Assembly: GCA_028688415.1 (NCBI GenBank)
Contig: JAQTYF010000001.1
Span: 400,627 to 464,626 of the forward strand
DNA: 64,000 nucleotides
Direction of reading: 5' to 3'
DNA from: Candidatus Moraniibacteriota bacterium
GTDB taxonomy: Bacteria; Patescibacteriota; Minisyncoccia; Moranbacterales; UBA1568
Below, piece after piece: positions 10,356 to 48,853 of this stretch. Both the position numbers and the translations under genes were made by a program. How positions within the stretch are numbered: the stretch's first letter is position 1; every line of letters starts with the position of its first letter. The notes below the pieces were generated by a model, which was not told where the DNA came from, searched no databases, and was given only the letters and a program-made list of their open reading frames with translations.

Positions 10356-10359
10356 ATCT

Positions 10360-12676: not shown

Positions 12677-12684
12677 CCATCTCT

Positions 12685-28250: not shown

Positions 28251-28389
28251 AAGTTATAATAAAAGAGGGTTGTTCCTGAAAATTATTTTTTCTTGCTCCT
28301 ATTTCTCTGTCGGTAACTTTTGCGATGAAAGTGTCGTTAGAAACGGAGCGTGACCCGGCCTCGCTCTCGCTCGTCGAGGCGGGCGGATG

Positions 28390-28409
28390 CCTGCCTGTCG
28401 GCAGACAGG
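28390..28409. repeat. 20-nt GC-rich hairpin motif cctgcctgtcggcagacagg (copy 1 of 3)
   Basis: Exact copies at 48680..48699 (same orientation) and 47024..47043 (reverse complement). Internal inverted repeat cctgtc/gacagg. Confidence 0.8.
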
Positions 28410-28543
28410 GTCTCGACAGGACAGTGACGTTTATCGACAACTGAGTCGGAAAAGTTCGACGGAGAAAGAAGGGAGAGAAAAGATAATTTTCAGAAACAAC
28501 AAACACTTTTACTTTATTGTACCACAAAAAGTCTTGTTTGAAA

Positions 28544-28572
28544 GCAAAAATGCCCGAATCGGGCATTTTTAC
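28544..28572 (-). terminator. Rho-independent terminator downstream of the DUF4012 gene (bidirectional)
   Basis: Perfect hairpin aaaaatgcccgaatcgggcattttt with flanking A/T runs on both strands. Confidence 0.65.
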
Positions 28573-28602
28573 AACGGTGCACATGCAGGAACAACGTTTT
28601 CT

Positions 28603-29973
28603 CTATTCACTTTCACTCAACACTTGATCTTGGTTGAGTATCATATTTTTCTCTTCTTTCGATCCATCTTTCTTGATCACCGTTACAGATATTGGCACAT
28701 CGCTCAGTCCTGATTGTTTTTGTATTTTGAGATCATACCATTCACGATTGAAATCTGATGGCAGTGTATACTCGAACGTTACTGTCTTCTCTGAAAGGAT
28801 CGGGATATGCACGATGACACCCACATATTTTTTGTTGAAGTCTTCTCCATACACCGGTGCTTTCGATGCCCCCTGTACTGTCTTTATATAACTCCCCTGT
28901 GGAATGTACACACGGAGGAATGTTTGATAATCCTTCGCAAACCAATCTTTTATTTTTGCCGTGTTTTTATAGGTGACAGCAAGTGATGCCTGAGGTATTT
29001 CAGAGGAAAGATCGATTGTGTATGCATACGAACGCTTCATATAATAATCACTCTTAAAAGAGTTCAAATTCGCATCCACCAAAAGAAGATAATCATTCCT
29101 CCACTTCTCATCTACTTTCCCGTCCCATCCAGAGAAAGCAATTTCTTCTTGTAACAATTCATCCTTAAATGCAAGTTGGATATCTTTGCTTCGAAGGTCA
29201 TCAAGTATCACTTGAAACAATTCGTATTTCTTTGAAAATGAGAGCTCTTTCACTTGTTTGAGAATTTCAAAACCGAGAATACTCATCACCGACTTACGAT
29301 CACCGAAAGCAATATCCTGTCTCAAATACCCTTGTTCCACTTGATATTCGAGGTCCAAGACTGCATTGTCAGCACCATACGTCCCTGGAAACCCCTCGAG
29401 TGTTACTGGTCCAGTCACGCGGAGGAATGACGAGAGAACATTGGTCGTAATAGCAACCACTCCGTCAAATTGTTCTTGTCCTTGTCCCATCTGATAAAAC
29501 AATTCTGCTTGTTTCGCATTGAGAGGAAAATCTGGAGAATAGTTTGAGTCACGGAATTTCCAAGAATTGATTCCGAGAGTTTCTTTCATCGGATACGGAG
29601 GAAGTACTGTACTCGGGATACGCCCATCGAAATTACCGGTATCATGAATAGCGAGATCAGTTACTGTACCGTCTTTTATCTTCAGTATGCCAAATGAACC
29701 GATGAACCCACCTCCTGGTCGAAGTTCGAGATTATTCTGAAAAAGAATAAGGAAAACTTTTTCTTGTCCTTGGGTAGAGAGGACGGCATCAGCGAGCGAG
29801 ATGACGGTCTCGAGATCAGCTCTTGTTTCTTGTGAAATTGGTACAAGTCCGAGCATGCGTTTGAGACTACCGAATCCCTGATTCTTCACTTCCCAAAAAA
29901 TAAACCAGCCTGTCAAAGAAATGACCGACACGATAACGAATGATACCCAGAATTGAGTCGAATATTTTTTCAT
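28603..29973 (-). CDS. DUF4012 domain protein (membrane-anchored)
   Basis: N-terminal TM helix. 'ELRPGGGFIGS' DUF4012 signature. 456 aa. Confidence 0.7.
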   Translation of the reverse strand: MKKYSTQFWVSFVIVSVISLTGWFIFWEVKNQGFGSLKRMLGLVPISQETRADLETVISLADAVLSTQGQEKVFLILFQNNLELRPGGGFIGSFGILKIKDGTVTDLAIHDTGNFDGRIPSTVLPPYPMKETLGINSWKFRDSNYSPDFPLNAKQAELFYQMGQGQEQFDGVVAITTNVLSSFLRVTGPVTLEGFPGTYGADNAVLDLEYQVEQGYLRQDIAFGDRKSVMSILGFEILKQVKELSFSKKYELFQVILDDLRSKDIQLAFKDELLQEEIAFSGWDGKVDEKWRNDYLLLVDANLNSFKSDYYMKRSYAYTIDLSSEIPQASLAVTYKNTAKIKDWFAKDYQTFLRVYIPQGSYIKTVQGASKAPVYGEDFNKKYVGVIVHIPILSEKTVTFEYTLPSDFNREWYDLKIQKQSGLSDVPISVTVIKKDGSKEEKNMILNQDQVLSESE

Positions 29974-29975
29974 AG

Positions 29976-31106
29976 TTATTTCTCTATATGAGCGAGTAAC
30001 GCATTCAAACGACGACGATATTCTTCTTGTGTTGGTTCGCTTGGTTCTGTTGGTTCAAGGGAAATGGTCGGGGCTATTCGTTCTTCTTGCGTTTGTTTCT
30101 CATGATTTGTATCGGACTTTAGAGTTTCAAATGGCACTGCCTCAGACGGCACTGTCATTTCTGTATGAACAACATCTTCTTCTGATACTGTTTCAAAGGT
30201 AAATGGCAAAGCATCTTCATCGGCAACTGGAAGATTTCTCTCATCGAGAGATCCCCCTTCGGCTTGAAGGCTTTTTTCTTGCCACTCTTCGTCTTTTGAT
30301 TTCTCTTGAACGAGGTTTTCTGAAAGTTCCTGTTTCCATTGTTGTTCTTCAAACGAAAGTGTATGCGGTTTTTCTGGAATGAATTTTTTCGGATCAATAA
30401 AAACATCCATAGTGTCCGTATCAAACTCTGGATACGCACGTCTTGCAAGATATTCATTTTCAGATGAAGTTTCGAGCGAAGGAATTGTTTCTCGTCCTTT
30501 CGTCCTCATCCCCATCCATTCAGGAAGGATTCGCAGAAGAAAAAAGAAGCATGTGGTCAAGGATATACTGGTCAGAAGACTAATACCGATGAATGACCAT
30601 GGTGTATCCATAGAATACGAAACAATCGGTCCATCGACGACACGCATGTCAACACCTGTTTTCACATCATAGTAGAGACCGGCGACAGAAAACAGTGTTT
30701 GTGCTGTTTGCGAAGCGAGACGTTTTGATTTTTCTGGCGTATCACCCTGCGCACGAATAATGAGCATTCCACCTCCATCTTGCAAAGTAAGAGAAACGAG
30801 CTGTTGCCATTTCTCCTTACGTGCATCTGGTGCATACCCGACGAAATCATCATCGATCAAATCATTATCGGCAAGGAGACGATTATAGAAAGAAAGTGTC
30901 TGCGAAAGTCCTCGCATCGTTTGAGCTATCTCTGATGGTTGCTCCACTGTAGACTGAGCAATGACTACAATGGTCACTTCCGCATTGTAACTACGAAAGA
31001 AATCCAACCAAAAAAGACCCGAAGCAAACGTCACAAAAAAAAGTGTGACGGCAAAAGCTCTCCAAAATGATGAGTGGTGCCATTTATTTGGTACGGTATG
31101 AGGCAT
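29976..31106 (-). CDS. Two-TM envelope protein with an acidic C-terminal tail (Wzz-like topology), hypothetical
   Basis: TM1 near the N-terminus, a ~150-aa loop, TM2 ('FIGISLLTSISLTTCFFFLLRIL'), then an E/D/P/T-rich tail. Start ambiguous (overlaps the GT4 gene end). Confidence 0.4.
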   Translation of the reverse strand: MPHTVPNKWHHSSFWRAFAVTLFFVTFASGLFWLDFFRSYNAEVTIVVIAQSTVEQPSEIAQTMRGLSQTLSFYNRLLADNDLIDDDFVGYAPDARKEKWQQLVSLTLQDGGGMLIIRAQGDTPEKSKRLASQTAQTLFSVAGLYYDVKTGVDMRVVDGPIVSYSMDTPWSFIGISLLTSISLTTCFFFLLRILPEWMGMRTKGRETIPSLETSSENEYLARRAYPEFDTDTMDVFIDPKKFIPEKPHTLSFEEQQWKQELSENLVQEKSKDEEWQEKSLQAEGGSLDERNLPVADEDALPFTFETVSEEDVVHTEMTVPSEAVPFETLKSDTNHEKQTQEERIAPTISLEPTEPSEPTQEEYRRRLNALLAHIEK

Positions 31107-32259
31107 AGTGTTCTTTCGCATTATGATATCCGTGCAGAGCATCCTCATACACTTCGAGTGTTTTACGCGCTATCGCTTCCCAACTATAATTGTCCAAAAT
31201 ACGCTCTTTGGCTATCTTGCCTAGAGCTCTGACTTCATCAGGTCGGTTGATGAAATACGCCAATTCTTTTTTCAAACTCTCCACATCTTTATTCGGAAAC
31301 AAAACACCCGTATTGGCTACTGCCTCACGATTCGCAGGGATATCACTGACGATTGGCATGAGTCCGTGTCCCATTGCTTCGAGGAGTGCGATAGACAGTC
31401 CTTCATCTTCAGATGGCTGCACAAAAAGATACGCATGTGAAAACAACTCATCGAGCGCTTTGCCTGTCTGTTCTCCAGTAAAGATAACATTACGACGATT
31501 ATGCGCTATTACCTTGAGAAACGTCTCGTATTCTTCCGTATGTGCAGGTGCACCAACAATCACAAGCTTGAAATTATTTGGGAGTTTATTTGTATCTTCC
31601 AATTCATTGAACGCTTTGATGAGATAGTGAATACCTTTGTGCGCTATCAATCGACTGACTGACAATATATATCGGTTCGGACGAATATTCCATTTGTTCA
31701 ACATTTCCGTCTCTGATTCATATGACACATCTGCACCATTTGGCACACAAACGAACGTACGCTTATACGTTGCTTCGACATATTTCTGCAGTGTTTCACT
31801 GATGACAATCGTTTTATCAGGAATCGTACAAATCATTTTTTCTGAAAAATGCAAAAAGGCTCGCGCAAATACATTCCATTTTTGATGAAAATAATCACGA
31901 CTATGAAACGTCGCTATCACTGACATATCAGGACGAAGAAGTTTCGGGATAAAAGAAAGAATACTCGGCCCGATAGAATGATAGTGCACGACATCATAAT
32001 TCTGAAACAAGGCATGCACAGTCGCAATAAATGTGTGCGTAATCGCATCGAGATGTTTCGTCTTGATGCTCGGAAGCGAGATGAGTTTCACTCCTTTGTA
32101 CATCTTCAGTGTTTTATCGGTATAGGACGGTCTGGTATAGACCACGACTTCGTGACCAAGGAGTGCCAGTTGCACCACTAATTTCTCGACGTGTTTTTCA
32201 ACACCGCCCGAGAGACTTGGTATTCCTTTTTGACCGATAAAAGCTATTCTCATACTCAA
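31084..32259 (-). CDS. Glycosyltransferase family 4 (GT-B)
   Basis: 'GGVEKHVEKLVVQLALLGHEV' N-domain and C-terminal E-x7-E region ('EGLSIALLEAMGHGLMPI'). Confidence 0.75.
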   Translation of the reverse strand: MSMRIAFIGQKGIPSLSGGVEKHVEKLVVQLALLGHEVVVYTRPSYTDKTLKMYKGVKLISLPSIKTKHLDAITHTFIATVHALFQNYDVVHYHSIGPSILSFIPKLLRPDMSVIATFHSRDYFHQKWNVFARAFLHFSEKMICTIPDKTIVISETLQKYVEATYKRTFVCVPNGADVSYESETEMLNKWNIRPNRYILSVSRLIAHKGIHYLIKAFNELEDTNKLPNNFKLVIVGAPAHTEEYETFLKVIAHNRRNVIFTGEQTGKALDELFSHAYLFVQPSEDEGLSIALLEAMGHGLMPIVSDIPANREAVANTGVLFPNKDVESLKKELAYFINRPDEVRALGKIAKERILDNYSWEAIARKTLEVYEDALHGYHNAKEHYASYRTK

Positions 32260-32285
32260 ATTTTTTGATCTACCAAAAATTGTTC

Positions 32286-33269
32286 CTAAAAACCACGGAC
32301 GATTGGGGAAAAAGAACCGAGAATATTCCCTTCAATATGATCCACATTCACTCCTGTTCCGTATTGCAGTCCTCCAAAAGTATTGACACCAGCTGGTGTA
32401 CGGGCGATGCGAGCGATACCATAGTGACCATTGTTGAAAAGAGTCGCTTTCTTGAAACCGATAGTACCAGCTGCTCCATAAGCATTTACCTCTACTCCTT
32501 CACGGCCATTGTTTCGGATGTTATTTTTCTTACTCCAGATTTCAGATTCATCCAATACGAGTTTCAGACCACTGCCTTTGTTTCCGCTGAAACTATTTTT
32601 CTCGAGCCAAGCTTCGGTTCCCATCGCAAAGTCAACACCGTCACTTTTATTCGAAGTAACGTAACTATTCGTAAGCACGATGAAGCGTTTCTCTGCGAAA
32701 ATACCCGCACGATCGTTTTGAGTGATTTCCACGGTATCAAGAAGGACACGATGTTGCTTGTCAGTTTTTGCAGAATCGATATGGATACCATCACGATTAC
32801 TGTTTTTGACAACGACGTTATAGAGATGAGCTTTCGCGTCCGTCACGATACGTACACCGTGTCGTCCACCTTTGACAGTCACATAACTCAATTTAGATTG
32901 ATCTTTCATGGTCACGGCCGGACGATCTTCATTCTTCGCTTTGATCACGACTTTTTCTCGCTTATTGCTGTCGCCGACAACTTTCACGTCTTTCGGAATG
33001 GTGATATTTTCTTTGTACTCACCATTTTTGACTCGTACTTCTGTGCCTTTTTTCACATGATCAAGTGCCTGAGAGATACTGTGATACGGATGAGTGGCTG
33101 TACCTTCTTCAGAGCCACTCGCATCTTTATCAACAAAAACTATTTTTGAACCACCAAAAACAACCACTGGAATGATGACGATGAGCGCGAGTATCAAACC
33201 AATAAAAACCTCTTTCGAAAGCCAAAAATTGCGATTGAACATAGAAATAGAGTGATAGTTCTTAAACAT
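32286..33269 (-). CDS. Right-handed parallel beta-helix repeat protein, membrane-anchored
   Basis: N-terminal TM anchor followed by repeated ~22-aa segments rich in 'N.GI.I', 'G..V..N' and 'NNG.EGV' typical of pectin-lyase-fold repeats. Confidence 0.55.
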   Translation of the reverse strand: MFKNYHSISMFNRNFWLSKEVFIGLILALIVIIPVVVFGGSKIVFVDKDASGSEEGTATHPYHSISQALDHVKKGTEVRVKNGEYKENITIPKDVKVVGDSNKREKVVIKAKNEDRPAVTMKDQSKLSYVTVKGGRHGVRIVTDAKAHLYNVVVKNSNRDGIHIDSAKTDKQHRVLLDTVEITQNDRAGIFAEKRFIVLTNSYVTSNKSDGVDFAMGTEAWLEKNSFSGNKGSGLKLVLDESEIWSKKNNIRNNGREGVEVNAYGAAGTIGFKKATLFNNGHYGIARIARTPAGVNTFGGLQYGTGVNVDHIEGNILGSFSPIVRGF

Positions 33270-33357
33270 AACATATTAGCAAATTTTGACCATTTTGTCA
33301 AGGGTAGATTTTTCAGCTATACTAGAAAGCATTCGGCTTTATATAAAACAAAAAACT

Positions 33358-35469
33358 ATGCAATTTGAAACACTTTTTTCTCCAAAATCTATCGCAGTCA
33401 TCGGAGCATCCACACAGGTTGGCACGGTCGGCTACACCCTCACCGAAAACCTTCTCCAAAACGGATACACTGGGAAGGTCTATCCGGTCAATCCAAAAAC
33501 GGATACACTCTTCAATCTCCCTTGTTATGCAAACATTTCTCTTATTCCCTACGACATCGAACTCGCTATCATTATTGTTCCAGCACATATCGTCCCTGTC
33601 GTTCTTCGCGAAGTCGCTGCCAAAGGCATAGCCTCCGCGATCATCATCTCTGCCGGGTTCAAAGAAACAGGTGAAGCCGGAGAGAAGCTCGAAATGGAAA
33701 TAACAACTATTGCACGAGAAAATAATATCGCTCTTCTCGGACCGAATTGTCTCGGATTTCTCCGCCCTTCTCTCGGGCTCAATGCTTCTTTTGCAAAAAT
33801 TCTTCCGAGTGATGGACACATCGCTTTCTTCTCTCAGAGCGGTGCTCTTTGTACAGCCCTCCTCGATCTCACCACGACGTCACTTGGCTTCTCACATTTT
33901 GTGAGCATCGGTAACAAAGCTATCATCGATGAGAACACCCTTCTTCAATTTTTCTCTGCCGATAAAAATGTTTCTGTCATCAGTTGTTATACCGAAGGCG
34001 TCACTGATGCCAACAAAATGATAGAAACGGGTCGTGCTATACTCGCGAGATCCGATGCCAAACCAATCATCGCTCTTAAATCAGGAACGACCACTGCCGG
34101 CACGCAGGCATCAAGCTCTCATACGGGTGCTCTCGCCGGGAGCGATGCAGCTTACATCGCACTCTTCAAACAATCTCGCATCATCCGTGCGGAGAGTCTC
34201 GAAAATCTGATCGATCTCCTCACAGTTTTTTCTCACAACACCCTTCCAGAAGACAACCGCGTCGCTATTATTACGAATGCTGGAGGACTCGGTGTTCTCG
34301 CTACGGATGCTGCCATCGAGAGCGGTCTCCGTATTGCGCCCCTCAGTAATGTGACCAAGTCACGGCTACGTGATGTCCTCCCTCCGTCTGCCAGCGTGAA
34401 CAATCCAGTTGATGTACTCGGTGATGCACTCGCAGAACGTTATGAACACGCACTCGAAGTAGTAGTCAGAGATGAATCCGTCGATATGATACTTGTCATC
34501 GTCACCCCACAGACCATGACGGAAGATGTGAAGACTGCCGAAGCACTCATTGCTATAAAAAAGCACTACAACAAACCAATTGTTGCTGTGTTTGCTGGTC
34601 AAGAATCATTCCGTGCTGGGAGCGACCTCCTGAAATCTCATGGTGTGGCCGTCCTCACCTATCCAGAATCCGGTATGCGAGCACTCGGATCACTCGCTCA
34701 GGTTACCAAGTGGCGTAAACAGCTCATTGTTCCAGAGATAACTCTCAGTAATATCGACAAGGAAAAGGCTCGAAAAATACTCGATGATGTACAAAAAAAT
34801 GGTCGCGCGACGCCGACTGAAAAAGAAACGAGCGAAATCCTCAGTGCTTATGGATTCCCCTTCTTTGCTACCTATGAAGTACAAACGAGAGAAGAGGCTA
34901 TTTCTGCAGGACAGAAAATCGGCAAAAAAGTCGCTCTCAAAATCGTCTCGCCAGACATCATTCACAAATCCGATGCGGGCGGAGTAATACTTGGTATCGA
35001 TTCAAGCGACGTCGGAGAGGCCTACGATCGGCTGATGGTCACGGTCAAGAAAAATGTTCCTGACGCACATATCACTGGTGCACTCGTCGTCGAAATGGCA
35101 GAATCGGGTGGTAAAGAACTCCTCCTCGGACTCAAGAAAGAACCCGGACTCGGTACCCTCCTTGTTTTCGGTCTCGGTGGTATCTATGTCGAAACACTCA
35201 AAGATGTCACGATGCGTTTTGTTCCAACCAATGAAACTGATATCGATGAAATGATCCGAGAAATAAAAAGTTTTGCCATTCTCTCCGGAGTACGAGGTGA
35301 ATCGGGTATCGATATGTCCTATCTGAGAGAAGTCTTGATGCGTCTGACACAGTTTGCAATAGATTTCCCGGAAGTCGCTGAGCTCGATATCAACCCTCTC
35401 CTTTCCTTTCCTCAAAAAGAAAATTTCCGTGTTCTCGATGCGCGTATCCGTCTCGAAAAAACGCTCTGA
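33358..35469 (+). CDS. ADP-forming acyl-CoA synthetase, fused alpha/beta (CoA-binding + ATP-grasp)
   Basis: 'SIAVIGASTQVGTVGY' CoA-binding Rossmann start, ligase-CoA domain, and a C-terminal ATP-grasp ('DIIHKSDAGGV'). Start taken at MQFETL 33358. Confidence 0.7.
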   Translation: MQFETLFSPKSIAVIGASTQVGTVGYTLTENLLQNGYTGKVYPVNPKTDTLFNLPCYANISLIPYDIELAIIIVPAHIVPVVLREVAAKGIASAIIISAGFKETGEAGEKLEMEITTIARENNIALLGPNCLGFLRPSLGLNASFAKILPSDGHIAFFSQSGALCTALLDLTTTSLGFSHFVSIGNKAIIDENTLLQFFSADKNVSVISCYTEGVTDANKMIETGRAILARSDAKPIIALKSGTTTAGTQASSSHTGALAGSDAAYIALFKQSRIIRAESLENLIDLLTVFSHNTLPEDNRVAIITNAGGLGVLATDAAIESGLRIAPLSNVTKSRLRDVLPPSASVNNPVDVLGDALAERYEHALEVVVRDESVDMILVIVTPQTMTEDVKTAEALIAIKKHYNKPIVAVFAGQESFRAGSDLLKSHGVAVLTYPESGMRALGSLAQVTKWRKQLIVPEITLSNIDKEKARKILDDVQKNGRATPTEKETSEILSAYGFPFFATYEVQTREEAISAGQKIGKKVALKIVSPDIIHKSDAGGVILGIDSSDVGEAYDRLMVTVKKNVPDAHITGALVVEMAESGGKELLLGLKKEPGLGTLLVFGLGGIYVETLKDVTMRFVPTNETDIDEMIREIKSFAILSGVRGESGIDMSYLREVLMRLTQFAIDFPEVAELDINPLLSFPQKENFRVLDARIRLEKTL

Positions 35470-35637
35470 TATTTCCTCGAGAAAATGAAAAAGGCAGGGA
35501 AGAAAGATTTCTTCTCTGCCTTTTATATCTCGTACTCCATCACATATGACGGAGCATCGGCATTCCGATCAGCGCCAGCACCAAAAGCACGGCAATCACG
35601 ATGCCCACAGTGAATTTGTCTTCAGGCTTCAGATTCA

Positions 35638-36036
35638 TCACGCCTCCCGTTTCTTGGAGAAGGTACTGATGAAATTGAGCACGTCTGGAATCGTTTTCAC
35701 GACTCCTCGCGATTCTCTCACCCTCGGATTCTTCTCCGAGGGTGAGAGCCAGCACCAGATGTCGAAACCTAGGGGAAGCACTTTCACGGTACACTTCCCC
35801 GGGTTGTACGGCGACCCTTCGAAAGAAATCACCGGACGCCAGTCGTTTGCCATCACACTCTGCTCGAGCGTGCGGTACCGATCGGCATACTGCGCCGAGG
35901 TGAGAAGCTCAACCGCCACGAGCTTCTCTGCCTTTATCGAGACAGGGAAGAACGTGACGGCCACTCCATCTTCGATCCCCTGCGCCCACACCGGTCCGAT
36001 AAAAAAAGAAAGAAAAAAAAGAAAATATTTGATCAT
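35638..36036 (-). CDS. Small secreted protein, hypothetical
   Basis: Start at MIKYFLFFLSFFIGPVWAQG (signal peptide). SD 'ggagg' upstream. The track ORF extends further to 36210. Confidence 0.4.
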   Translation of the reverse strand: MIKYFLFFLSFFIGPVWAQGIEDGVAVTFFPVSIKAEKLVAVELLTSAQYADRYRTLEQSVMANDWRPVISFEGSPYNPGKCTVKVLPLGFDIWCWLSPSEKNPRVRESRGVVKTIPDVLNFISTFSKKREA

Positions 36037-36435
36037 TTCTGACCTCCATTTTTTGTTGAAGAACGCGAGAAAAAAAACAAAAATGCCAATGCTCGACCCA
36101 TACTTTTCACTCCTTTTGTTGTTAAAAAACCATCCTAAACACGAATTACTATTATAGCACTTTTTACCCATCTTGTAAAGGGCACTCACTTCAATCCAAT
36201 TCTGAAACACAACATCTAAATATAGGAAATGTTTCTATCCAATACCCAAAAGAATTTTTTGTTGGTTGCTCCACTTGTTTGAGACGGCTTTCTTTGATCG
36301 AAAAATTTCCTATGGATGCCGTAGAGTGAGGGAATATTTTTCGCAAGCAAAGAAAGTCGGTGAGGCTGGAGCAGAGACAAAAAATTACTTTTGGGTATTG
36401 AAAGAAGTTGCATTTGAGAATGAAATGAAAGAAAT

Positions 36436-37626: not shown

Positions 37627-37632
37627 AGAATT

Positions 37633-39189: not shown

Positions 39190-39245
39190 ATATTATTCTT
39201 CCACGCTGGTGAAATACTAGTATCTATTCACTACGCTACTCTCCG

Positions 39246-39291
39246 AGAAAAAAGTGTGGCGGATTCTTCTGTTGTTCCAGAAAAATCCGCC
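39246..39291 (-). terminator. Rho-independent terminator downstream of the lipoprotein gene
   Basis: Hairpin ggcggatt...aatccgcc, followed on the minus strand by a U-run (A-run 39248..39253 on plus). Confidence 0.55.
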
Positions 39292-39299
39292 GACTTCGT

Positions 39300-40192: not shown

Positions 40193-40428
40193 TCATGTGA
40201 TAACTCCTGTAAAATTGAAAGGTACTCTCTGTTTTCGGGATCATTTCTGATACCGCGGGTAGAAGAATGAATCATCACTGTTCCGCCCGCCGTACCACAA
40301 AATCCTGTTTTTTCTCTCCTTTGATAACTGTATATTATACTCTATTTCAACAGAAAAGTCAAGAGCCCACAGATTCCAGTTGGAAAATGTGGGCTCTTTT
40401 TTGGCGATGTTTCTCGCCCATTGTGGGG

Positions 40429-40797
40429 TTACTGCGATTCGAGAGCGCAGCCGTTTTTATTGGTGCATTCGGTCACCACACCTGACAATGTGTAGGGATT
40501 GCCAGCCGGGGTAATCAGTAACCAACGACCACTGGCGTCCTTGACCTGGAACCGGCCACCGTTCTCGGAGACCTTGGACAAGACGCCGACGCCGTCCTTC
40601 ATGGCGATCGGCCGTATTCCTTGGTTCTGGAAATGGACCAAGGTTTTTGCTGGAATACCCGCGACCGTGATGGTCACGTCGTCGCCCGCTTTCGTGGCCG
40701 TGATCGTACCCCCCGAAACGGCGAAGGTTTTGGCAGAAGTCAGGCCAGCGAATGCAACCAAGGCGGTTGCGAGGGAGAGGGAAAGAACTTTGTGCAT
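40429..40797 (-). CDS. Small secreted protein, hypothetical (GC-rich island)
   Basis: Signal peptide 'MHKVLSLSLATALVAFAGLTSA'. SD 'aggagg'. 122 aa. Confidence 0.45.
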   Translation of the reverse strand: MHKVLSLSLATALVAFAGLTSAKTFAVSGGTITATKAGDDVTITVAGIPAKTLVHFQNQGIRPIAMKDGVGVLSKVSENGGRFQVKDASGRWLLITPAGNPYTLSGVVTECTNKNGCALESQ

Positions 40798-40877
40798 GGT
40801 AACCTCCTAGGTTGCACGTTTTGATTCATTGAGTGTGGACACTCAACGGCCCGCAAAACAATTTTTGAGGACTTTCC

Positions 40878-40906
40878 ATATTACACCAAAACAAACGTTT
40901 TGTCAA
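40878..40906 (-). promoter_or_regulatory. Consensus-like sigma70 promoter for the 40797 gene
   Basis: On minus: TTGACA, 17-nt spacer, TAATAT. Followed by a 7-bp perfect inverted repeat ttgagtg-tgga-cactcaa (about 40827..40844) ahead of the RBS. Confidence 0.45.
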
Positions 40907-41127
40907 TAGCTAAAAAATGCCTTAGTATCAGCCTTCTTTTCTCTACAACAAGTAAATGAAAATAAATAAAGCAAAAGGGACGGTCACACATTGTGTAAAC
41001 GTCCCTTGTTGTCATTTTCGAAGCACACTTTTTCTTCACGCCAGGCCTGATATCTCGTATGTTTTCACATTGACGGATACACTTTTTATACACCTTGGAT
41101 CAGAATCAAAAGTTTTGCCAAACCACC

Positions 41128-42636
41128 TTATTCGGGTGGACTAGAGGAAGCTTCCATTATGGCAGAGATGAAGTCAAGTTGACCATCCCTGCTCTTGGCA
41201 TCAGCTTCGCGGACCTTGCCACCGAGCTCAACACGTACGAACGCGCCGACAGTGGTCAGGTCTCCGGAAGTGAGTGGCTGATTCAGATGGCTGATGCCCA
41301 AAGGTACACTCAGCTGTGGACCAAACATCAGCCACTTGTCGTACCGTACTTCGTACGTCGCCTTGAGCCAATGCTGTTCGTCCCAGTTGGTGAACGCCCA
41401 ACCGCCGATCAACCGTTGACGCCACTTGTCATCATCTGAGAGCTTCGTTTCATAGAAGCCAGACAGACTGACGGAGCCACGGTCTTGGACGGGTTGTCCT
41501 GCCCAGGTCGAGCTGACGCTCTGACCGAAGGACTTCCAATATTCACCTACGATACCAGCGAGGTCGCCCTCTTTGTTCAACCGTTCGGTGTAGCCCGCGT
41601 ACGCACCCAACTTGTACCCATTCTGAGTAAAGCTGTAACCTGACTCAGGATTTTCACCCCAAGACTTGTCACGGAGCAAACGGAGTTTCAGATCGAATGT
41701 CGTGAGACGGTTCCGATCGTTCACCCAATTTTTCTGGGCACCAAATTGAACGCCGTAACCGAGTTCCTGCCCGTGGTAAGCAGAGGTGAGTGAATCGCCA
41801 CTGCCATACATAGCGTAGAGCCCGGGACCGGCTTGCCATTCACCATTCTGCCAGATGTAGCAAATGGTTTCGCCGTAGAGCCACTGGCCTTGATAGACCT
41901 GATTGGCATGGACGCCGGCACCGGCTTGAGCCTCACAACGTGGCTTGCCTGCTACTTCTGCAGGGGTCACATGAAACGGAGCAATAATCTCCGGCTCTGC
42001 AACAGGCACTTCTTTGGGAGGTACCATGATCACTGGTGGAGTCGACACTACGGGAGTATCGAGCACCCAGTTGTTGCAGTTCCTCACCCAGTGAAGTTTC
42101 CTTCCTGTAGTGAGGACATACGTCCGAGCCAGTACGACCACCGAGCCAGGAGCCCATGCAGTGATGACATTGTGCTTGAACGACACGGAGCCATTCTTGC
42201 AAAATGCCACTGCCTCATAACGTTCCCCTGGTTGGATGAACGTGTTGCGATGTTCACGACGAGTGATCATCGCATGGAGGTCCTGTTTCTCACTCTCTGT
42301 GAGACCCAGACTCATCCACGCCTCTTCGTTTAGAACGTTTGCGGATTTGCCACCACAATTTGTGAGTGGAGCACCGCCGACATGTGTCCAGCGAAACTCT
42401 GCTGGCGACTTGTTCACAGTTTTGACACTGCGCACAGGTACGCTGAGCTCGAGGCGTTGTCCGACAAAAATCTTGGAGCAGTCTCGCAGGCTATTCGCCA
42501 GACAGACCGCTTTCCAATTTTTTCCAGCCACCTTGCTCAATGTATCACCGGCTTTCACCGTATACACTTCCGCATTCGCCGTTCCGAAGAAGGCAAACAG
42601 TACCACCAAGAAGGTGGCGATCATTTTAATGATCAT
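41128..42636 (-). CDS. Secreted LysM-domain protein with a large Gly/aromatic-rich C-terminal domain (GC-rich island)
   Basis: Start MIIKMIATFLVVLFAFFGTANA (signal peptide), then 'YTVKAGDTLSKVAGK...' LysM. ~400-aa C-terminal region with alternating aromatic/Gly residues. Confidence 0.55.
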   Translation of the reverse strand: MIIKMIATFLVVLFAFFGTANAEVYTVKAGDTLSKVAGKNWKAVCLANSLRDCSKIFVGQRLELSVPVRSVKTVNKSPAEFRWTHVGGAPLTNCGGKSANVLNEEAWMSLGLTESEKQDLHAMITRREHRNTFIQPGERYEAVAFCKNGSVSFKHNVITAWAPGSVVVLARTYVLTTGRKLHWVRNCNNWVLDTPVVSTPPVIMVPPKEVPVAEPEIIAPFHVTPAEVAGKPRCEAQAGAGVHANQVYQGQWLYGETICYIWQNGEWQAGPGLYAMYGSGDSLTSAYHGQELGYGVQFGAQKNWVNDRNRLTTFDLKLRLLRDKSWGENPESGYSFTQNGYKLGAYAGYTERLNKEGDLAGIVGEYWKSFGQSVSSTWAGQPVQDRGSVSLSGFYETKLSDDDKWRQRLIGGWAFTNWDEQHWLKATYEVRYDKWLMFGPQLSVPLGISHLNQPLTSGDLTTVGAFVRVELGGKVREADAKSRDGQLDFISAIMEASSSPPE

Positions 42637-42804
42637 GATGCACTCCTTTGTTGGTTGATTGAAAAATAGGTCACCGCAAGGCGACCCGACCTGAGTTGCT
42701 TCACGGCACACCTCCTGTTGTTAAAAAACCACCTTGATAATCCGAAATAGACTATCTCAACTGCTTTTGATTTCTTATTTCAAAAACAGCATGACATATT
42801 CCAT

Positions 42805-43443
42805 TTACTGAAGAGAATTTCCAGAACGAAATTCTTCTTCGATGAGACGCACAGTAAGAGTAAGAAAGAATCCAAGTACGAGTCCAACAAGGGCAATAAG
42901 AGAAAGTTTATATGCTGAAGGATTGGCCTCAATGATCGGTCCAGAAAGTAACCTCACACTCACCTTGTCACTACCAACTCCGAAAAGACTCTCACTTTTT
43001 TCCGTAAGAACAATCGTAATTGCTTGAGATACTCTGGAAACTTCGCGTTCACTCGATCCCGAAAGAACAACCTTCATAAAACCAAGTTCTGGATTTTTCT
43101 TCACTTCAAGCATTTTGGACCATTTTTCGAGACGATTTTTCTTATCTTTTGGCAAGAGATTTGCATCAATGCCTCCTGTCTCAACGACTGCATCGATGAA
43201 ACTTTCAGCATACAAAATCTCGCCTAAGACACGACTCATATATTCCGCGGAACGTGTCGCAGTATAATAATCCTGACCGTCCTGTGTCGATGAAATCATA
43301 AAATCGGCACTCGATTGATATGGGGCCTGCAAAACAAATGTTCCAACAATGCCAACCAAAGCAAAAAGTGTACCAAGAAACAACCCTCGAGAGAGGCTTT
43401 CTTTGACAAGTGTCCACAATCCTTTTTTTCGAAGAAAATTCAT
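42805..43443 (-). CDS. Wzz/PCP-like polysaccharide chain-length determinant (small form)
   Basis: Start at MNFLRKKGLW. TM1, a ~150-aa extracytoplasmic region, and C-terminal TM2 'LIALVGLVLGFFLTLTV'. Confidence 0.45.
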   Translation of the reverse strand: MNFLRKKGLWTLVKESLSRGLFLGTLFALVGIVGTFVLQAPYQSSADFMISSTQDGQDYYTATRSAEYMSRVLGEILYAESFIDAVVETGGIDANLLPKDKKNRLEKWSKMLEVKKNPELGFMKVVLSGSSEREVSRVSQAITIVLTEKSESLFGVGSDKVSVRLLSGPIIEANPSAYKLSLIALVGLVLGFFLTLTVRLIEEEFRSGNSLQ

Positions 43444-43571
43444 ACTATGAAATATATCTTTTAATAACTGCTTATTGTACCAAGAAATATCGAAAATGTC
43501 AAGTCTATAAAACAAATAAACCCTCTGCTAAAGGGTTTATTGCATCAATAAAGGTATTCTTCAGATGACTT

Positions 43572-44723
43572 CTACGAGAAAAGAGCACCAATTTTCTCTA
43601 AAATACGAAAGTTGGAGAAATCTTTGATAGTGATGAAGAGCATAAGAAGGAGGAGGAGAATAAATCCCACTTGATGAATCATCCCTTCTGTCCGACGACT
43701 CACAGGCGTTCCTTTCAATTTTTCGATGAGAACAAAAAGTATTCGTCCGCCATCGAGAGCAGGAATAGGCAGGATGTTTATAATACCGAGATTGATAGAG
43801 AGAAGCGCTGCAAACTGGAGTAGGTAAGAAATACCGAGATCGCTCATCTGTTTCGTCAGATATACGATACCTACTGGACCAGTCACATCAACTGGAGCAC
43901 CCGTCTGCTCACCGAAAAGTCCCGCTATCATTGTACCAAACGCCTGCAAGATAGCGACGGTTATATTGTATGTTGCTTCAAGTCCGTGCCAGAAAGCGAG
44001 GTACCACGGATAAGCAATGACTGCTGTTTCTGAAAAAGAAATACCGAGACTCCCTTCGGTAGGAGGGTAATCCGTCCGAGGCGTTCCTGAAAGAGTCATA
44101 TCTGTACCGAGACGATTGATCGTCATCTCAATATTTTTTCCTTTATTTTTTTGGATGATATCAGTCACTTGCGCAAGCGATGAGATATGCTCCCCTGCAA
44201 TCGAAAGTACTTCATCTCCGAGTTGGAGTCCCATTGCTTCTGCTGGTGTCCCTTTCTTTACTTCAAGAATCTGAATTTTAGCATCCGGATATTGCGTACG
44301 ATCTGAAGGATCGATAGGCTGTGCCGATCCGAGCATAAACACGATAGAAATCAGTACCCACGCAAGAACAAAGTTCATGAAAACTCCTGCGCCAAGTACC
44401 TTCACGCGTATCCATGCTGGCTTGGAACCAAAACTGTCTTGTTCTTGATTCTGACCATCTTCGCCCTTGATTTTCACAAAACCACCAAGCGGTAGCCAAT
44501 TGAAAGAGTAGACGGTATGAGGGCTCTCCACTTCCTTGCTTCCCCAAATTATTTTGTAGCGTCCTGTGGCATCATCCTTCACTACTCCAAACATCCGTGG
44601 AGGGAAACCGAAACCAAACTCATCAGCTTTGATACCATTACGACGAGCCACAATGAAATGACCAAGTTCATGAACAAGCACGAGAGATCCGAGTACAACG
44701 AGAAAAATGAGGGCGGTAAGCAT
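43572..44723 (-). CDS. rseP: Site-2 protease (RseP-type zinc metalloprotease)
   Basis: 'HELGHFIVAR' HExxH in TM1. PDZ domain. C-terminal 'LNxxP' region ('INILPIPALDGG'). Confidence 0.85.
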   Translation of the reverse strand: MLTALIFLVVLGSLVLVHELGHFIVARRNGIKADEFGFGFPPRMFGVVKDDATGRYKIIWGSKEVESPHTVYSFNWLPLGGFVKIKGEDGQNQEQDSFGSKPAWIRVKVLGAGVFMNFVLAWVLISIVFMLGSAQPIDPSDRTQYPDAKIQILEVKKGTPAEAMGLQLGDEVLSIAGEHISSLAQVTDIIQKNKGKNIEMTINRLGTDMTLSGTPRTDYPPTEGSLGISFSETAVIAYPWYLAFWHGLEATYNITVAILQAFGTMIAGLFGEQTGAPVDVTGPVGIVYLTKQMSDLGISYLLQFAALLSINLGIINILPIPALDGGRILFVLIEKLKGTPVSRRTEGMIHQVGFILLLLLMLFITIKDFSNFRILEKIGALFS

Positions 44724-44764
44724 AAATAAATTAATTAAAAAAATTTGAAATTTATATTTTAAAA

Positions 44765-45322
44765 TTATACTGTGAGTATGTCTTTCTCTTTTTTCTCACG
44801 GATGTCTTCGAGTTTCTGATTATATTCATCCACCACTTTCTGTAATTCATCTTTTCCTTGAAATTTATCATCCTCAGATATTTCACCAGATTTTTCTTTA
44901 TCCTGGATATCTTTCCAGATACCCTCACGAACGGTACGGATAGCAATACGACCTTCTTCGGCTTTGGCGTTGAGCGTTTTGACAAAATCATGACGACGAT
45001 CTTCGGTGAGTGCAGGAAGGGTGATACGGAGGGCGACGCCATCGTTATTTGGATTGAGTCCGAGATCAGACTCACGGAAAGCAGCCTCAATCAGTGCCAA
45101 ACTTCCTTTGTCCCACGGCTGAATGAGGATTTGTCTCGCCTCTGGTATCATAATATTTGCTATTTGCTTGAGAGGTGTCTTTGTACCATAATAATCCACC
45201 ATCAGATTTTCGACGAGACTCGGCTGAGCTCTGCCGGTGCGGATCTTGGATGATTCATTAGCAAAATGTTCGACAGCATTTTCGAAATTCGGTATTTCCA
45301 CAGCAATCAATTCTTTGATCAT
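44765..45322 (-). CDS. frr: Ribosome recycling factor
   Basis: 185 aa, full-length similarity ('IRTGRAQPSLVENLMVDYYG', 'EDRRHDFVKTLNAKAEEGRIAIR'). Confidence 0.9.
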   Translation of the reverse strand: MIKELIAVEIPNFENAVEHFANESSKIRTGRAQPSLVENLMVDYYGTKTPLKQIANIMIPEARQILIQPWDKGSLALIEAAFRESDLGLNPNNDGVALRITLPALTEDRRHDFVKTLNAKAEEGRIAIRTVREGIWKDIQDKEKSGEISEDDKFQGKDELQKVVDEYNQKLEDIREKKEKDILTV

Positions 45323-45343
45323 AGTTATATGGATAAAAAATAA

Positions 45344-46561
45344 TTATTTGAAATTACGAAGACCCAGAAATAAATACTGCGAATCAAATGGATCGTATGT
45401 GACAAACGATGCTCCTCGATCGACATTGAGTCCTGTCGTCATCCATGTTGCTCCATCGTCGACAGATTTATAGAATGCTTTTCCTGCAACAAAGACAATT
45501 TCTTTCGAATTCTTCGGATTGACAGCAATCGAACGAATTGAAAACTTTTTTGCACTTTCAATAATATTGATTTCGTCCCAATATTTCCCGAACGTTGTAC
45601 TGCGGAAAAATCCTCTGCTCGTACCAGCATAAATGACACCTGATCGTGTCGGATCGGGCATGATAGAAACAATACCACTCGGAACTTTATTTTTCTGATT
45701 ACGTTCATTCAAGGTGGATATCTGCTTCTGTAATCGCGTCACTTCTGCTTTATTATCACTTATTTGTGCTTTACGCATTTTTTCTTGGAGAACATCTACT
45801 TCTTTTCGTTTCAGATCTTCCCAATCATTCCACTTGATACCTCCATCGGAAGAATAATAGAGTGTTTTCCCAAAAACGAGCAGATATGTCGTGAAGTTTT
45901 GTTCTGCATCAAAAGCGATATCTGCTACCAAACCGTTGATAGCGTTTCCGACATTCTTCCAGGTCTCTCCACTATCCACACTCTTCACCACTGTTCCAGC
46001 TGCCGTTCCAGCAAAGATGACGTTTCGATCACGAAAATGCTGAGAAAGAGCAGTGACCGCGGTCTGTTGTCCTGGTTCAGTATAGACATCTTTCCATGTC
46101 GTACCTCCATCGTCTGTACGAAATATCTTCCCCCAATCATTGACCATACCAGAAGCAAACATTCGATTATCAGGGTCATTCTTATCGAGAATGAAACTAT
46201 AGATTCTCTTCGGAGGAAAAGGAATGTTCATCCATTGCTCACCATTATTTTCTGTTTTGAAAATACCATTATCGACAGAACTCACATAGATTGTCCCTGG
46301 TTGTCGTGGATGATAGGCGATAGAAAGGATATCAGATTTCGTGATACTTGTTTTCTCATCAATCTGTGATTTGGGAACAAAGTTTTTTCCTCCATCCTCT
46401 GTCTTCCAGAGACTCCCTGGAAGGGCTTTGGTGACAAACGCACTATCCTCTGTGACGACAGGCTCAGTATTGGTATTCGGAGCTGGTCTATTCATACTCG
46501 GAAGCGAACAACCAGACAAAAATATTGAACTTATAAGCACTCCAAAAATCCTTTTTTTCAT
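45344..46561 (-). CDS. BNR/Asp-box repeat beta-propeller lipoprotein
   Basis: Lipobox 'LSGCS'. Repeated S-x-D-x-G-x-T-W boxes ('TDDGGTTW', 'SVDSGETW', 'SSDGGIKW', 'SVDDGATW'). Confidence 0.6.
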   Translation of the reverse strand: MKKRIFGVLISSIFLSGCSLPSMNRPAPNTNTEPVVTEDSAFVTKALPGSLWKTEDGGKNFVPKSQIDEKTSITKSDILSIAYHPRQPGTIYVSSVDNGIFKTENNGEQWMNIPFPPKRIYSFILDKNDPDNRMFASGMVNDWGKIFRTDDGGTTWKDVYTEPGQQTAVTALSQHFRDRNVIFAGTAAGTVVKSVDSGETWKNVGNAINGLVADIAFDAEQNFTTYLLVFGKTLYYSSDGGIKWNDWEDLKRKEVDVLQEKMRKAQISDNKAEVTRLQKQISTLNERNQKNKVPSGIVSIMPDPTRSGVIYAGTSRGFFRSTTFGKYWDEINIIESAKKFSIRSIAVNPKNSKEIVFVAGKAFYKSVDDGATWMTTGLNVDRGASFVTYDPFDSQYLFLGLRNFK

Positions 46562-46620
46562 AATATAAAGAGAAAGATAATACCCATTCAGTATAGCATA
46601 TTTTCTCTCAGACGTATTTT

Positions 46621-46683
46621 CTCAAAAAAAATCAAACTCCTGATGAAAGAGTTTGATATGTGTTGGTGGGTGCGGGGGGAATC
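46621..46683. repeat. 63-nt direct repeat of the tRNA-Lys 3' end plus its downstream hairpin (copy 1)
   Basis: Identical to 46779..46841. Contains the CCA end and 3' acceptor/T-arm part (minus strand) plus the caaactc/gagtttg hairpin. The intervening ~95 nt holds a diverged T-arm-like fragment. Confidence 0.8.
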
Positions 46684-46821
46684 CTCATCGCTCCGACTCA
46701 GAGCCGGGGCGCTACACACAGAATGCTCGCTCGCTCACATTCTACTCACGCCCTTCGATTCCCCTATAAGAAAAAAGTCTCAAAAAAAATCAAACTCCTG
46801 ATGAAAGAGTTTGATATGTGT

Positions 46822-46897
46822 TGGTGGGTGCGGGGGGAATCGAACCCTCGACCGTTGGCTTAAAAGGCCACTGCTCTACCGACTGAGCTACGCACCC
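46822..46897 (-). tRNA. tRNA-Lys (anticodon UUU), CCA encoded
   Basis: Minus-strand fold GGGTGCG...CGCACCC-A-CCA. Anticodon loop CTTTTAA. T arm GAGGG-TTCGATT-CCCCC. Confidence 0.85.
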
Positions 46898-46993
46898 ATT
46901 CATAAAAAGACGTTCTATAAAACGCAATACGATTGTAACAAGGAAAATCTTTATCGTCAACAAGAGATCCTTTCATCTTATTGCCAAATCATC

Positions 46994-47166
46994 AAAAGCC
47001 AATTTTTCATCATCGTTCCACCTCCTGTCTGCCGACAGGCAGGCTCACAAGAGCTCTCAGTAAAACGAAAAAAGAAGCCTCCAATCAACACACTCTTAGC
47101 TTCTTTTTTCGATCTGAGAGCTCTTGCTCAGTCAGTGTGGAAAGGATGTTGAAAAAATTCTTTTGA
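46994..47166. repeat. ~150-nt hairpin repeat, copy A (carries the 20-nt motif as an insertion)
   Basis: Nearly identical to 57943..58087 (two substitutions and one small indel seen by eye), apart from a 20-nt insert at 47024..47043. Internal imperfect ~24-bp stem around a 20-nt loop. Confidence 0.8.
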
Positions 47167-47227
47167 TAAATTGGCCAGATCCACTACAAAGAATTTATAC
47201 TTCAAAATGGGATTGGAGAAACAATTA

Positions 47228-48556
47228 TCACCCTTTCTTCGCTTCTATCACTGCTTTTCCAACAAATGGTTGCAGGACTTCTGGAACAGAAACACTCCCG
47301 TCGGCATTCTGATAATTTTCGAGGATAGCGATGAGAATACGCGGACTCGGAAGCGCAGTGTTATTGAGCATAAAAGCGTATTTTCGTTCCCCTGTCGTAG
47401 CATCTTTGTATTTCACATTGAGACGACGAGACTGCCAATCAAGAAAATTGGATGCAGAACCTGTCTCACCATAGCGATTCATTCCCGGCATCCAGGCTTC
47501 GAGATCAAATGCTCGATATTTCCCAGCACTCATATCACCACTACAGATTTGTATCTTACGATATGGCAGGCCGAGTTCCTGATGCATTTCTTCGGAGATC
47601 GCTATCATTTCATCCTGCAAAGCATCGACAGATGACATATCGGCGGTAGTAATAACTACTTGTTCTACTTTCATAAACTCGTGCACGCGATACATTCCTT
47701 TGGTATCCTTGCCATAACTCCCGATTTCACTACGGTAACACTGACTGAAACCAGCAAATTTGACTGGGAGATTTTTTTCCTCCAAGACTTCTCCGGAATA
47801 GTATGCGAGAAGCGATGGCTCGGCAGTGCCTACCAAAAATTTTTCTTCTTTAGCAAGGCTCCCATCAGCCTCCTTGTCTGAGGTCGCCACCTGATAAATC
47901 TCATCAATAGCACCATCATACTGTGCGCCCTTGAAATATCCACTGCCAAAAAGAGGGAATCCTTTCACGAGTGTTGGGGGAATCATTGGTGTGTATCCCT
48001 TGGAAACGAGTTTTTGCACAGCATACATCATGAGTCCCATCACAAGAAGCATGCCTTCATTCTTCAGATAATATCCACGATACCCAGACACTTTCGTTCC
48101 GCGCTCAAAGTCGATAATATCGAGCATCATACCGAGTTCTATATGTGTACGTGGGATAAAATCAAATGTAGGCACTGCTCCAGAATTGAAGGTTTCGACA
48201 TTCTGTTCCTCACTCGTTCCGATCGGTGTATCTCCTGAAATAATATTTGGCACCTGTGCCATGAGCTCATCATATTCTTTCTTCACTTCTTCAAAGAGAG
48301 GCTCTTTCTCATCGAGTTTCATCTTGATATCTTTTCCTTTGGCAATGATTTCGACACGCTCCTCTTCTGATTTTGCTTGATGAATCAGATCATTGATATC
48401 ATTCTTGAGTGATTTTAATTCTTCAATATCTTGGATAAGAAGTACTCGCTCTTCTGATTTCGCGAGAAGTACCGTCAGATCAAGTGAGCTGTGTTTCGCT
48501 TGAATCGCTTTCTCTACTTCTTCTCTATTATTTTTGATGAATTGAATATCGAGCAT
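47228..48556 (-). CDS. serS: Seryl-tRNA synthetase
   Basis: N-terminal coiled-coil arm. Class II motifs ('FRAEIGSYGKDTKGMYRVHEF', 'GSASNFLDWQSRRL'). Confidence 0.9.
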   Translation of the reverse strand: MLDIQFIKNNREEVEKAIQAKHSSLDLTVLLAKSEERVLLIQDIEELKSLKNDINDLIHQAKSEEERVEIIAKGKDIKMKLDEKEPLFEEVKKEYDELMAQVPNIISGDTPIGTSEEQNVETFNSGAVPTFDFIPRTHIELGMMLDIIDFERGTKVSGYRGYYLKNEGMLLVMGLMMYAVQKLVSKGYTPMIPPTLVKGFPLFGSGYFKGAQYDGAIDEIYQVATSDKEADGSLAKEEKFLVGTAEPSLLAYYSGEVLEEKNLPVKFAGFSQCYRSEIGSYGKDTKGMYRVHEFMKVEQVVITTADMSSVDALQDEMIAISEEMHQELGLPYRKIQICSGDMSAGKYRAFDLEAWMPGMNRYGETGSASNFLDWQSRRLNVKYKDATTGERKYAFMLNNTALPSPRILIAILENYQNADGSVSVPEVLQPFVGKAVIEAKKG

Positions 48557-48660
48557 ATTTTTAGCTTCTTAGCTTCATTAGCTTTTTAGATTTCAAATGA
48601 ATAGGTGGTCGCACTTGGACTCGTCCGATATTCATCGGACGCCCCGCGCATGCGGGGCGA

Positions 48661-48722
48661 ACTAGTGACCCCTGAGCAACCTGCCTGTCGGCAGACAGGT
48701 GTGAATGCAATACTCTAAACCT
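48661..48722 (-). pseudogene. tRNA-Val pseudo-fragment (D loop to T loop) with the 20-nt motif inserted at position 37/38
   Basis: Minus-strand sense reads ggtttagagtattgcattcaca-[cctgtctgccgacaggcagg]-ttgctcaggggtcactagt. The adjacent intact gene reads ggttagagcattgcattcaca-ttgcaggggtcactggt. Confidence 0.65.
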
Positions 48723-48739
48723 CACCCCGTTAGAATTGT

Positions 48740-48812: not shown

Positions 48813-48853
48813 TCCACAATTCTAACGGGGCAAGCCTGAGCTATAACCTTTTT

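Follow-up and report, generated by a model that had tools for sequence, protein, structure and literature searches.

The small dispersed repeats (SDRs) of cyanobacteria described by Elhai et al. in 2008 are reportedly 21–27 nt long, dispersed, nested and found among tandem heptamers and mini-transposons, with hairpins that carry compensatory changes, and they are said to be confined to one cyanobacterial subgroup. To our knowledge, no enzyme has been assigned to them. Repetitive extragenic palindromic sequences (REPs) and the ends of IS200/IS605 elements are processed as single-stranded DNA by HUH/Y1 enzymes, and IS200/IS605 elements show a strong strand bias and possess transposases that need two ends. 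Here we describe a 20-nt element, termed X, in a 64,000-nucleotide stretch of a Candidatus Moraniibacteriota bacterium (GenBank assembly GCA_028688415.1, contig JAQTYF010000001.1, positions 400,627 to 464,626 of the forward strand), hereafter the window, to which all coordinates refer unless another stretch is named. X is a discrete and real mini-insertion, as its empty sites confirm. On our best reading, X would stand closest to the cyanobacterial SDRs and to REPs, as a structure-dependent mini-element mobilised in trans. We lean, with modest confidence, towards the interpretation that X is a non-autonomous mobile DNA element which inserts into loops and is moved by an enzyme supplied elsewhere, most plausibly one of the HUH/Y1 type. 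On that view X would rank among the smallest mobile DNA elements known.

X (CCTGCCTGTCGGCAGACAGG; 70% G+C) has three matches in the window when both strands are searched with up to three mismatches, and all three are exact: copy 1 at 28390..28409 on the plus strand, copy 2 at 47024..47043 on the minus strand and copy 3 at 48680..48699 on the plus strand. An initial annotation of this DNA had reported a GC-rich 20-mer at the same three positions and had judged the recurrence not to be chance, which is borne out by the absence of any match in 100 dinucleotide-preserving shuffles of the window. As single-stranded DNA, the minimum-free-energy (MFE) fold of X consists of a 4-nt 5' tail (CCTG), a 6-bp stem (CCTGTC/GACAGG) and a GGCA loop. 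The flanks of the three copies share nothing beyond a single G at two of them, and none of the three has a target-site duplication, as the same annotation had noted. The copies do not look like intrinsic terminators, because the GC hairpin is not followed by a T run (the right flanks read gtctcgac, aggtggaa and tgtgaatg), nor do they have the regular spacing of CRISPR repeats, being 18.6 and 1.7 kb apart and in mixed orientation.

Each of the three copies can be compared with a matching empty site, which upholds the initial proposal of a miniature insertion. Copy 2 lies in the 5' arm of an inverted repeat near serS and tRNA-Lys (hairpin-repeat copy A, 46994..47163). A second copy of this repeat of about 150 nt (copy B, 57935..58084) aligns with it end to end, and the 20-nt motif is the sole gap in the alignment, just as the annotation had described it as the only large difference between the two. 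The empty site is cacct^ctcac at 57964/57965, and the boundary of the gap is ambiguous by 1 nt. Leaving X aside, the two copies are 96% identical and contain an internal terminator-like stem. Copy A itself is missing from the serS–tRNA-Lys spacer of relatives with a SerS 82% identical. A further feature of this neighbourhood was seen in none of the relatives examined: the two perfect copies of a 64-nt direct repeat (46620-46683 and 46778-46841), which cover the 3' 20 nt of tRNA-Lys and its terminator, enclose a 94-nt GC-rich insert with an inverted T-arm-like motif, cccTTCGATTcccc.

Copy 1 occupies the apical part of a long hairpin in the trmD leader, at the site ggatg^gtctc. Its host is a rod-like inverted repeat of about 235 nt (28269..28500) between a gene for a DUF4012 protein, rather than ffh, and trmD, downstream of an extended −10 promoter-like sequence, TGTGGTACAAT; it folds with a z-score of −8.1 on one strand and −7.9 on the other. 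The hairpin is present in one related stretch (L157, TrmD 84% identical) and absent from another (L158, a 79% relative), which indicates that the hairpin is itself an insertion with X nested in it; so it behaves like a miniature inverted-repeat transposable element (MITE). In L157 the orthologous leader is empty and reads gtcgagac/catccg/tcacgc, where the window has gagac, then X' (X on the reverse strand), catccg, a 30-nt GC-rich hairpin Q and tcacgc. Q (28354..28383, plus strand) is unrelated to X and lies 6 nt from copy 1. Since L157 has neither X nor Q, the two are separate insertions, both without a target duplication.

The context of copy 3 is a tRNA within a tRNA. The outer gene, recognised from the sequence and by alignment, is a dead tRNA-Val on the minus strand (48606..48848) with the acceptor GGTTATA/TGCGACC. 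All its cloverleaf loops are interrupted: a cassette with a live tRNA-Val sits in the D loop, X in the anticodon loop and a pair of hairpins (48622-48641 and 48642-48657) in the T loop. The live gene, tRNA-Val(CAC) on the minus strand (48738..48812), was called by both ARAGORN and Rfam and provides the empty site for copy 3; a perfect 17-bp inverted repeat flanks it (48725-48741 / 48814-48830). Alignment of the dead copy to this intact gene places X directly after TTCACA in the anticodon loop, following position 37. Relatives with an 82% identical SerS have a bare single tRNA-Val in a 120-nt spacer. The dead acceptor matches the tRNA-Val of the relative L152, which has a homologous arrangement (2238-2500): there, another dead copy holds a live tRNA-Val in its variable region and has an X-like 19-mer, CCTGCCTGCCGTAGGCAGG, at the corresponding position of the anticodon loop. 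This looks like repeated replacement of a tRNA gene after hits by mini-insertions. CGTCCGATGAATATCGGACG and CCCCGCATGCGCGGGG (within 48622-48657; H16 and H20) and Q make three other GC-rich mini-hairpins right beside copies of X. These do not belong to the X family; all three are single-copy in all the data searched, and Q was not found in IMG/VR.

The presence/absence polymorphism that the initial annotation had suggested looking for is seen in the relatives, which have SerS or TrmD proteins 79–84% identical and lack X at all three loci. The three copies are therefore recent gains in this lineage of Moranbacteria.

X is also found far outside this lineage. The exact 20-mer occurs in at least 120 stretches of GTDB representative genomes, at least 120 JGI metagenome stretches and 23 viral stretches of IMG/VR, where by our arithmetic about one match to a random 20-mer would be expected in the 596-Gb genome collection. 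The hosts comprise cultured Flavobacteriia (Gaetbulibacter, Winogradskyella, Flavobacterium, Galbibacter and Gelidibacter), one Nostocales cyanobacterium, complete chromosomes of Draconibacterium and Balneola from metagenome-assembled genomes (MAGs), and MAGs labelled Saccharibacteria, Falkowbacteria, Nitrospirota, Planctomycetota, Desulfobacterota, Marinimicrobia, Actinomycetota, Bacillota and others. The recurrence of one short GC-rich palindrome across many unrelated assemblies calls for a check against adaptors, linkers and assembly chimeras. We regard the chance of such an artefact as negligible: both isolate genomes and complete long-read MAG chromosomes, produced by many laboratories, contain X, window copy 3 is reproduced in an independent Logan assembly (L122), the contexts are structured in ways described below (the same site in four nuclease-gene modules, exclusion from coding sequence, sisters with compensatory changes), and exact X is absent from 7.3 Gb of plasmids (PLSDB) and 2.3 Gb of GenBank phages, 9.6 Gb in all.

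When the ±400-nt flanks of about 160 copies were compared all against all, only duplicates on the same contig and one cross-genus cluster emerged, the latter being a family of modules with a tRNA-Leu fragment and a GIY-YIG gene. With this one exception the flanks are unrelated, and the motif is not part of a longer conserved element, the possibility that the initial annotation had named as the one that would speak against an insertion. X thus stands in unrelated contexts across many phyla and phages. Bystander copies with one to three mismatches are about as common as additional exact copies, indicating that X decays after insertion, as expected of neutral insertions.

What is conserved in X appears to be its structure. 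Three sister sequences recur as exact units: P (CCTGCCTGCCGGCAGGCAGG), which makes up 42 of the 56 copies of CCTGCCTG-N4-CAGGCAGG in IMG/VR, V (CCTGCCCGCCGGCAGGCGGG) and the 21-nt Z (CCCGCCTGCCGGACGGGCAGG). A covariation search in which only the tail CCYG and the loop GGCA were anchored recovered the fully paired stems CCTGTC (X), CCTGCC (P), CCCGCC (V) and CCTGAC. These stems differ from one another by double compensatory changes at the pairs 9-16 and 7-18, and intermediates with a single mismatch are rare. The compensatory stems support the tail-stem-loop as the selected form, which also explains why X has the look of an imperfect 8-bp palindrome.

X avoids coding sequence. Only 20% of its copies overlap an open reading frame (ORF) of at least 150 aa, compared with 76% of random positions, and the overlapping copies almost always lie within a few codons of the end of the ORF. 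The 21-nt Z has no stop codon in any of the six frames, and 34 of its 39 distinct copies are in frame deep inside long ORFs, 22 in the same and 12 in the opposite orientation, for instance in a phage tape-measure gene (four copies) and a tail-sheath gene (three copies). Removal from the RNA would make a 20-nt insert tolerable in genes, yet it is not tolerated there, which argues against RNA splicing, and the pattern suggests that insertion takes place at the DNA level and that X would be retained in transcripts. A particularly dense case is a prophage-like region of a termite-gut Bacillota MAG (L144, IMGVR_UViG_2820306284_000004, 1-13963; also L126, L164 and L171), in which at least 10 copies of Z are scattered over 14 kb, in frame in genes that include those for the tape measure and the sheath, alongside four copies of X. 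Its tail-sheath gene appears split, and a PHROGs scan of this phage returned structural genes only. In another stretch (L128, 5600-5700), a 532-aa ORF begins with a predicted signal peptide (MKKFLLFLFIFL-SCLSADR-FTSN...) whose lipobox-like residues are encoded by X, which may have been co-opted into the 5' end of the gene.

A spread through RNA, in which the X hairpin would be ligated or reverse-spliced into exposed loops of transcripts and then returned to DNA, is one alternative; an RNA intermediate was reportedly proposed for the cyanobacterial SDRs by Elhai et al. in 2008. Loops and tRNA-like targets are exposed in RNA, X' folds into an 8-bp stem with one G.U-type pair, and nested insertion and the association with heptamers are common to X and SDRs. 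Nevertheless, X and Z are found in both orientations relative to the host tRNA-like sequences and ORFs, as with the 22 and 12 copies of Z, and this mixed orientation relative to host transcripts disfavours the RNA route; nor does a reverse transcriptase occur in the window or adjoin X elsewhere. We therefore consider the RNA route unlikely.

The target preferences were derived from 260 distinct sites. The base before the junction (−1) is G in 59% (p = 7e-40) and a purine in 81%, the base after it (+1) is T or G in 76% and A in only 7%, T is found at +3 in 48% (p = 4e-11) and C at −4 in 37%. Perfect stems of at least 6 bp flank 9.6% of the sites directly, compared with 1.8% of control positions, and 6.2% of the sites have a tandem heptamer array no more than 60 nt away, compared with 0.44% of the controls. 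Six copies are nested in X, P or their relatives, always after the first loop base (stem-G^GCA-stem). Three models were compared with these data. Serine-recombinase crossover at GG, of the IS607 kind, was rejected because −2 is not G. Site-specific recombination between copies of X was likewise rejected, as the nested copies are linear insertions and not tandem duplications. A simple Watson-Crick guide model, in which the CCTG tail pairs with a CAGG-like left flank, fits in part, with C at −4, A at −3 and G at −1 enriched, but G is depleted at −2 and Z does not fit.

An intact tRNA lies within 100 nt of X in 4.7% of cases, compared with 0.9% of the controls, and X near a tRNA sits in a partial or dead copy, in its D, anticodon or T loop, or abuts the 5' end. 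When X was deleted in silico and ARAGORN was rerun, no interrupted copy became a callable tRNA, indicating that the hosts are fragments and not interrupted live genes. The only tRNA called at a site is an intact tRNA-Thr with X directly 5' of it (L008). Accordingly, X as a tRNA intron, either of group I or of the bulge-helix-bulge type, was rejected: the hosts are dead or fragments, and X is excluded from coding sequence. Rfam, at both gathering and E-value thresholds, matched tRNAs only and no group I intron. In one phage tRNA-Leu-like gene (L129, 250-420), the T loop begins with a tandem of X and a sister palindrome, CCTGCCTACCGGTAGGCAGG, and the D loop has a further X-like piece.

The constancy of the ends bears on yet another explanation, according to which free X DNA, released by excision or newly synthesised, is ligated into double-strand or hairpin-loop breaks that homing endonucleases, hairpin cleavage of the SbcCD type or similar activities have opened, so that the choice of targets would mirror the positions of breaks. 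The lack of target duplication, the mixed orientation, and sites in palindrome loops and beside genes of the homing-endonuclease type would all be in keeping with such capture. However, the insert always ends at the same 20 nt without trimmed or filled junctions in about 260 sites, the junctions are biased at −1, +1 and +3, and a free 20-mer has no known source. We hold this origin to be very unlikely.

The one family of conserved contexts raises the question of function. In Bacteroidota and Ignavibacteriota we observed a module composed of a 5' tRNA fragment of about 27 nt, a GIY-YIG gene of about 80 aa and an intact tRNA of the same type (L036 6400-7220; L046 4812-5190; L049 2049-2425; L085 327-730; L074 3772-4600; L013 7120-7800). 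The module resembles a free-standing homing-endonuclease cassette that duplicates the 5' end of a tRNA. Its tRNA fragment is a hotspot for mini-hairpins, with X always at GGTAGA^CGCGC and other inserts in the D loop. GGTAGA-X'-CGCGC is invariant in the modules with a tRNA-Leu fragment in Galbibacter, Winogradskyella, a Melioribacter MAG and one more genome, while the adjacent GIY-YIG genes are only about 60–65% identical among the four genera, which hints that X in these modules is under selection or has been repeatedly re-inserted and is not neutral junk. X might accordingly be a selected functional motif, namely a protein-binding site, a nuclease or immunity site of the GIY-YIG modules, or an RNA-stability hairpin. 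At each of the six loci with a GIY-YIG gene, X is no more than about 100 nt away from it, the master sequence is identical across phyla, and the window genome itself codes for a GIY-YIG protein. That stand-alone nuclease gene (21567-21926, minus strand; PF01541, E-value 1.3e-15), whose neighbours are hpf and a DUF1294 gene, lacks an adjoining tRNA fragment, its closest X is 6.5 kb away, and more than 90% of the copies of X have no GIY-YIG gene nearby. Furthermore, no gene, distance or orientation is common to the contexts, close relatives manage without X at the three window loci, and decayed copies exist. A selected function appears improbable to us.

The data show an element that is discrete, leaves demonstrable empty sites, was recently gained, is spread across phyla, covaries in its stem, has target biases and is excluded from coding sequence. 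For the mobile element that we favour, the identity of X would lie in its structure, the 5' CCTG tail, the 6-bp stem and the GGCA loop. It would be inserted precisely, with fixed ends (5'-CCTG...CAGG-3') and without target duplication, at a weak target between a purine and T or G, preferentially into hairpin loops, tRNA-like loops and the loops of its own relatives (G^GCA). Selection would purge the frameshifting 20-nt X from coding sequence and live tRNAs, and those that survive would be found in leaders and spacers, within other selfish repeats and in dead copies of tRNAs. The candidate mover would be an HUH/Y1-type nuclease-ligase, IS200/IS605- or RAYT-like, cutting 3' of G. The tetranucleotide with a hairpin, the lack of duplication and three inferred cuts 3' of G or a purine (at the left junction, the right junction and the target) favour an HUH-type single-strand mechanism, and the lack of a transposase, recombinase or reverse transcriptase nearby points to action in trans. 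We thus infer movement in trans by an enzyme acting on single-stranded hairpin DNA.

Several observations weigh against this interpretation, as does the invariance of X in the GIY-YIG modules. A Pfam scan of the approximately 60 ORFs in the window detected no transposase, recombinase, reverse transcriptase or HUH gene, and no mobilisation gene recurs within 2.5 kb of X over 120 loci, where the clusters of the 1,117 ORFs comprise housekeeping neighbours and GIY-YIG genes only. The orientation of X is mixed, both in the window and within single contigs, unlike the strand bias of IS200/IS605 elements, and a single 20-nt hairpin falls short of the two ends that their transposases need. X is identical across phyla, whereas REPs are species-specific. 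Regarding the targets, an obvious flanking stem is seen at only about 15% of the sites, and a crude test of hairpin-loop context based on MFE folds gave no enrichment (20% vs 25%); it was replaced by the local perfect-stem test, which was positive.

Compared with SDRs, X has a similar size (about 20–27 nt), unrelated flanks at about 260 distinct sites, a compensatory hairpin (X, P, V and CCTGAC), six nested cases and the neighbourhood of heptamer arrays (6.2% vs 0.44%). It differs in being identical in Bacteroidota, Patescibacteria, Cyanobacteria, Nitrospirota, Planctomycetota, other phyla and phages, in its link to tRNA loops and dead tRNA copies, and in having a 21-nt sister in frame in genes. 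X is, in our view, probably a cross-phylum variant of the 'very small mobile repeat' kind, a likeness to SDRs that is drawn from their described features. With REP/RAYT systems and IS200/IS605 hairpins, X shares a 5' tetranucleotide next to a GC-rich hairpin, an extragenic location and the lack of target duplication, a single-stranded hairpin as the likely substrate and a presumed mobilisation in trans. Its tail is CCTG and not GTAG as in REPs, it is not bound to a species, and at 20 nt it is shorter than any REP. Unlike the inverted doublets of REPIN and BIME (bacterial interspersed mosaic element) arrangements, X stands as single copies, all three in the window and most elsewhere. No RAYT or TnpA gene was found in the window or near X elsewhere.

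Among other small elements, IS200/IS605-derived MITEs such as PATE (palindrome-associated transposable elements) also lack target duplication, but X has one hairpin in place of a left and a right end hairpin, a weak CAnG-like left flank in place of a fixed tetranucleotide, and mixed orientations in place of a strand bias. A classical MITE moved by a DDE transposase differs from X in that none of the empty/filled pairs shows a target duplication. Rickettsia palindromic elements and the GC clusters and double-hairpin elements of organelles resemble X as nested selfish palindromes of AT-rich genomes, and they invade intergenic DNA, RNA genes and, in frame, coding genes, as does the X family; they measure 30–150 nt, are lineage-restricted and in some cases have short target duplications, whereas X is 20 nt long and found across phyla. 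The transposed tRNA mini-introns of Thermoproteales, archaeal bulge-helix-bulge inserts, are near-identical, 12–25 nt long and occupy many tRNA positions, 37/38 among them. X differs from them in its bacterial hosts, in that no splicing is inferred, in the presence of dead tRNA hosts beside live ones, and in that most copies lie outside tRNAs. None of the papers searched contains X, P or their 12-mers, and a search by concept returned organellar or Rickettsia analogues only.

A bolder proposal would be that X, P, V and Z are pan-bacterial mobile hairpins of at most 21 nt, the smallest transposable units known, which travel horizontally across phyla and via phages, insert into loops outside the described pathways by means of a widely conserved host or phage enzyme so far not linked to mobility, and drive tRNA-in-tRNA replacements by killing tRNA genes. 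We put this forward as a tentative possibility that might well not hold. Irrespective of this proposal, the inserts of X and Z disrupt or embellish tRNA genes and leaders and, in the case of the 21-nt sister, also proteins, and they mislead annotation, spurious peptides such as PACRQTG or LPVGRQ being examples. For uncultured lineages such as Patescibacteria they also provide natural markers of genome changes that are very recent, and since X occurs in several Flavobacteriia that can be cultured, the mechanism is open to direct testing. Should X be mobile as we infer, 20 nt would be enough for a transposable unit that crosses phyla, which would set a lower size limit for selfish DNA and imply an unrecognised, widely shared mobilising activity.

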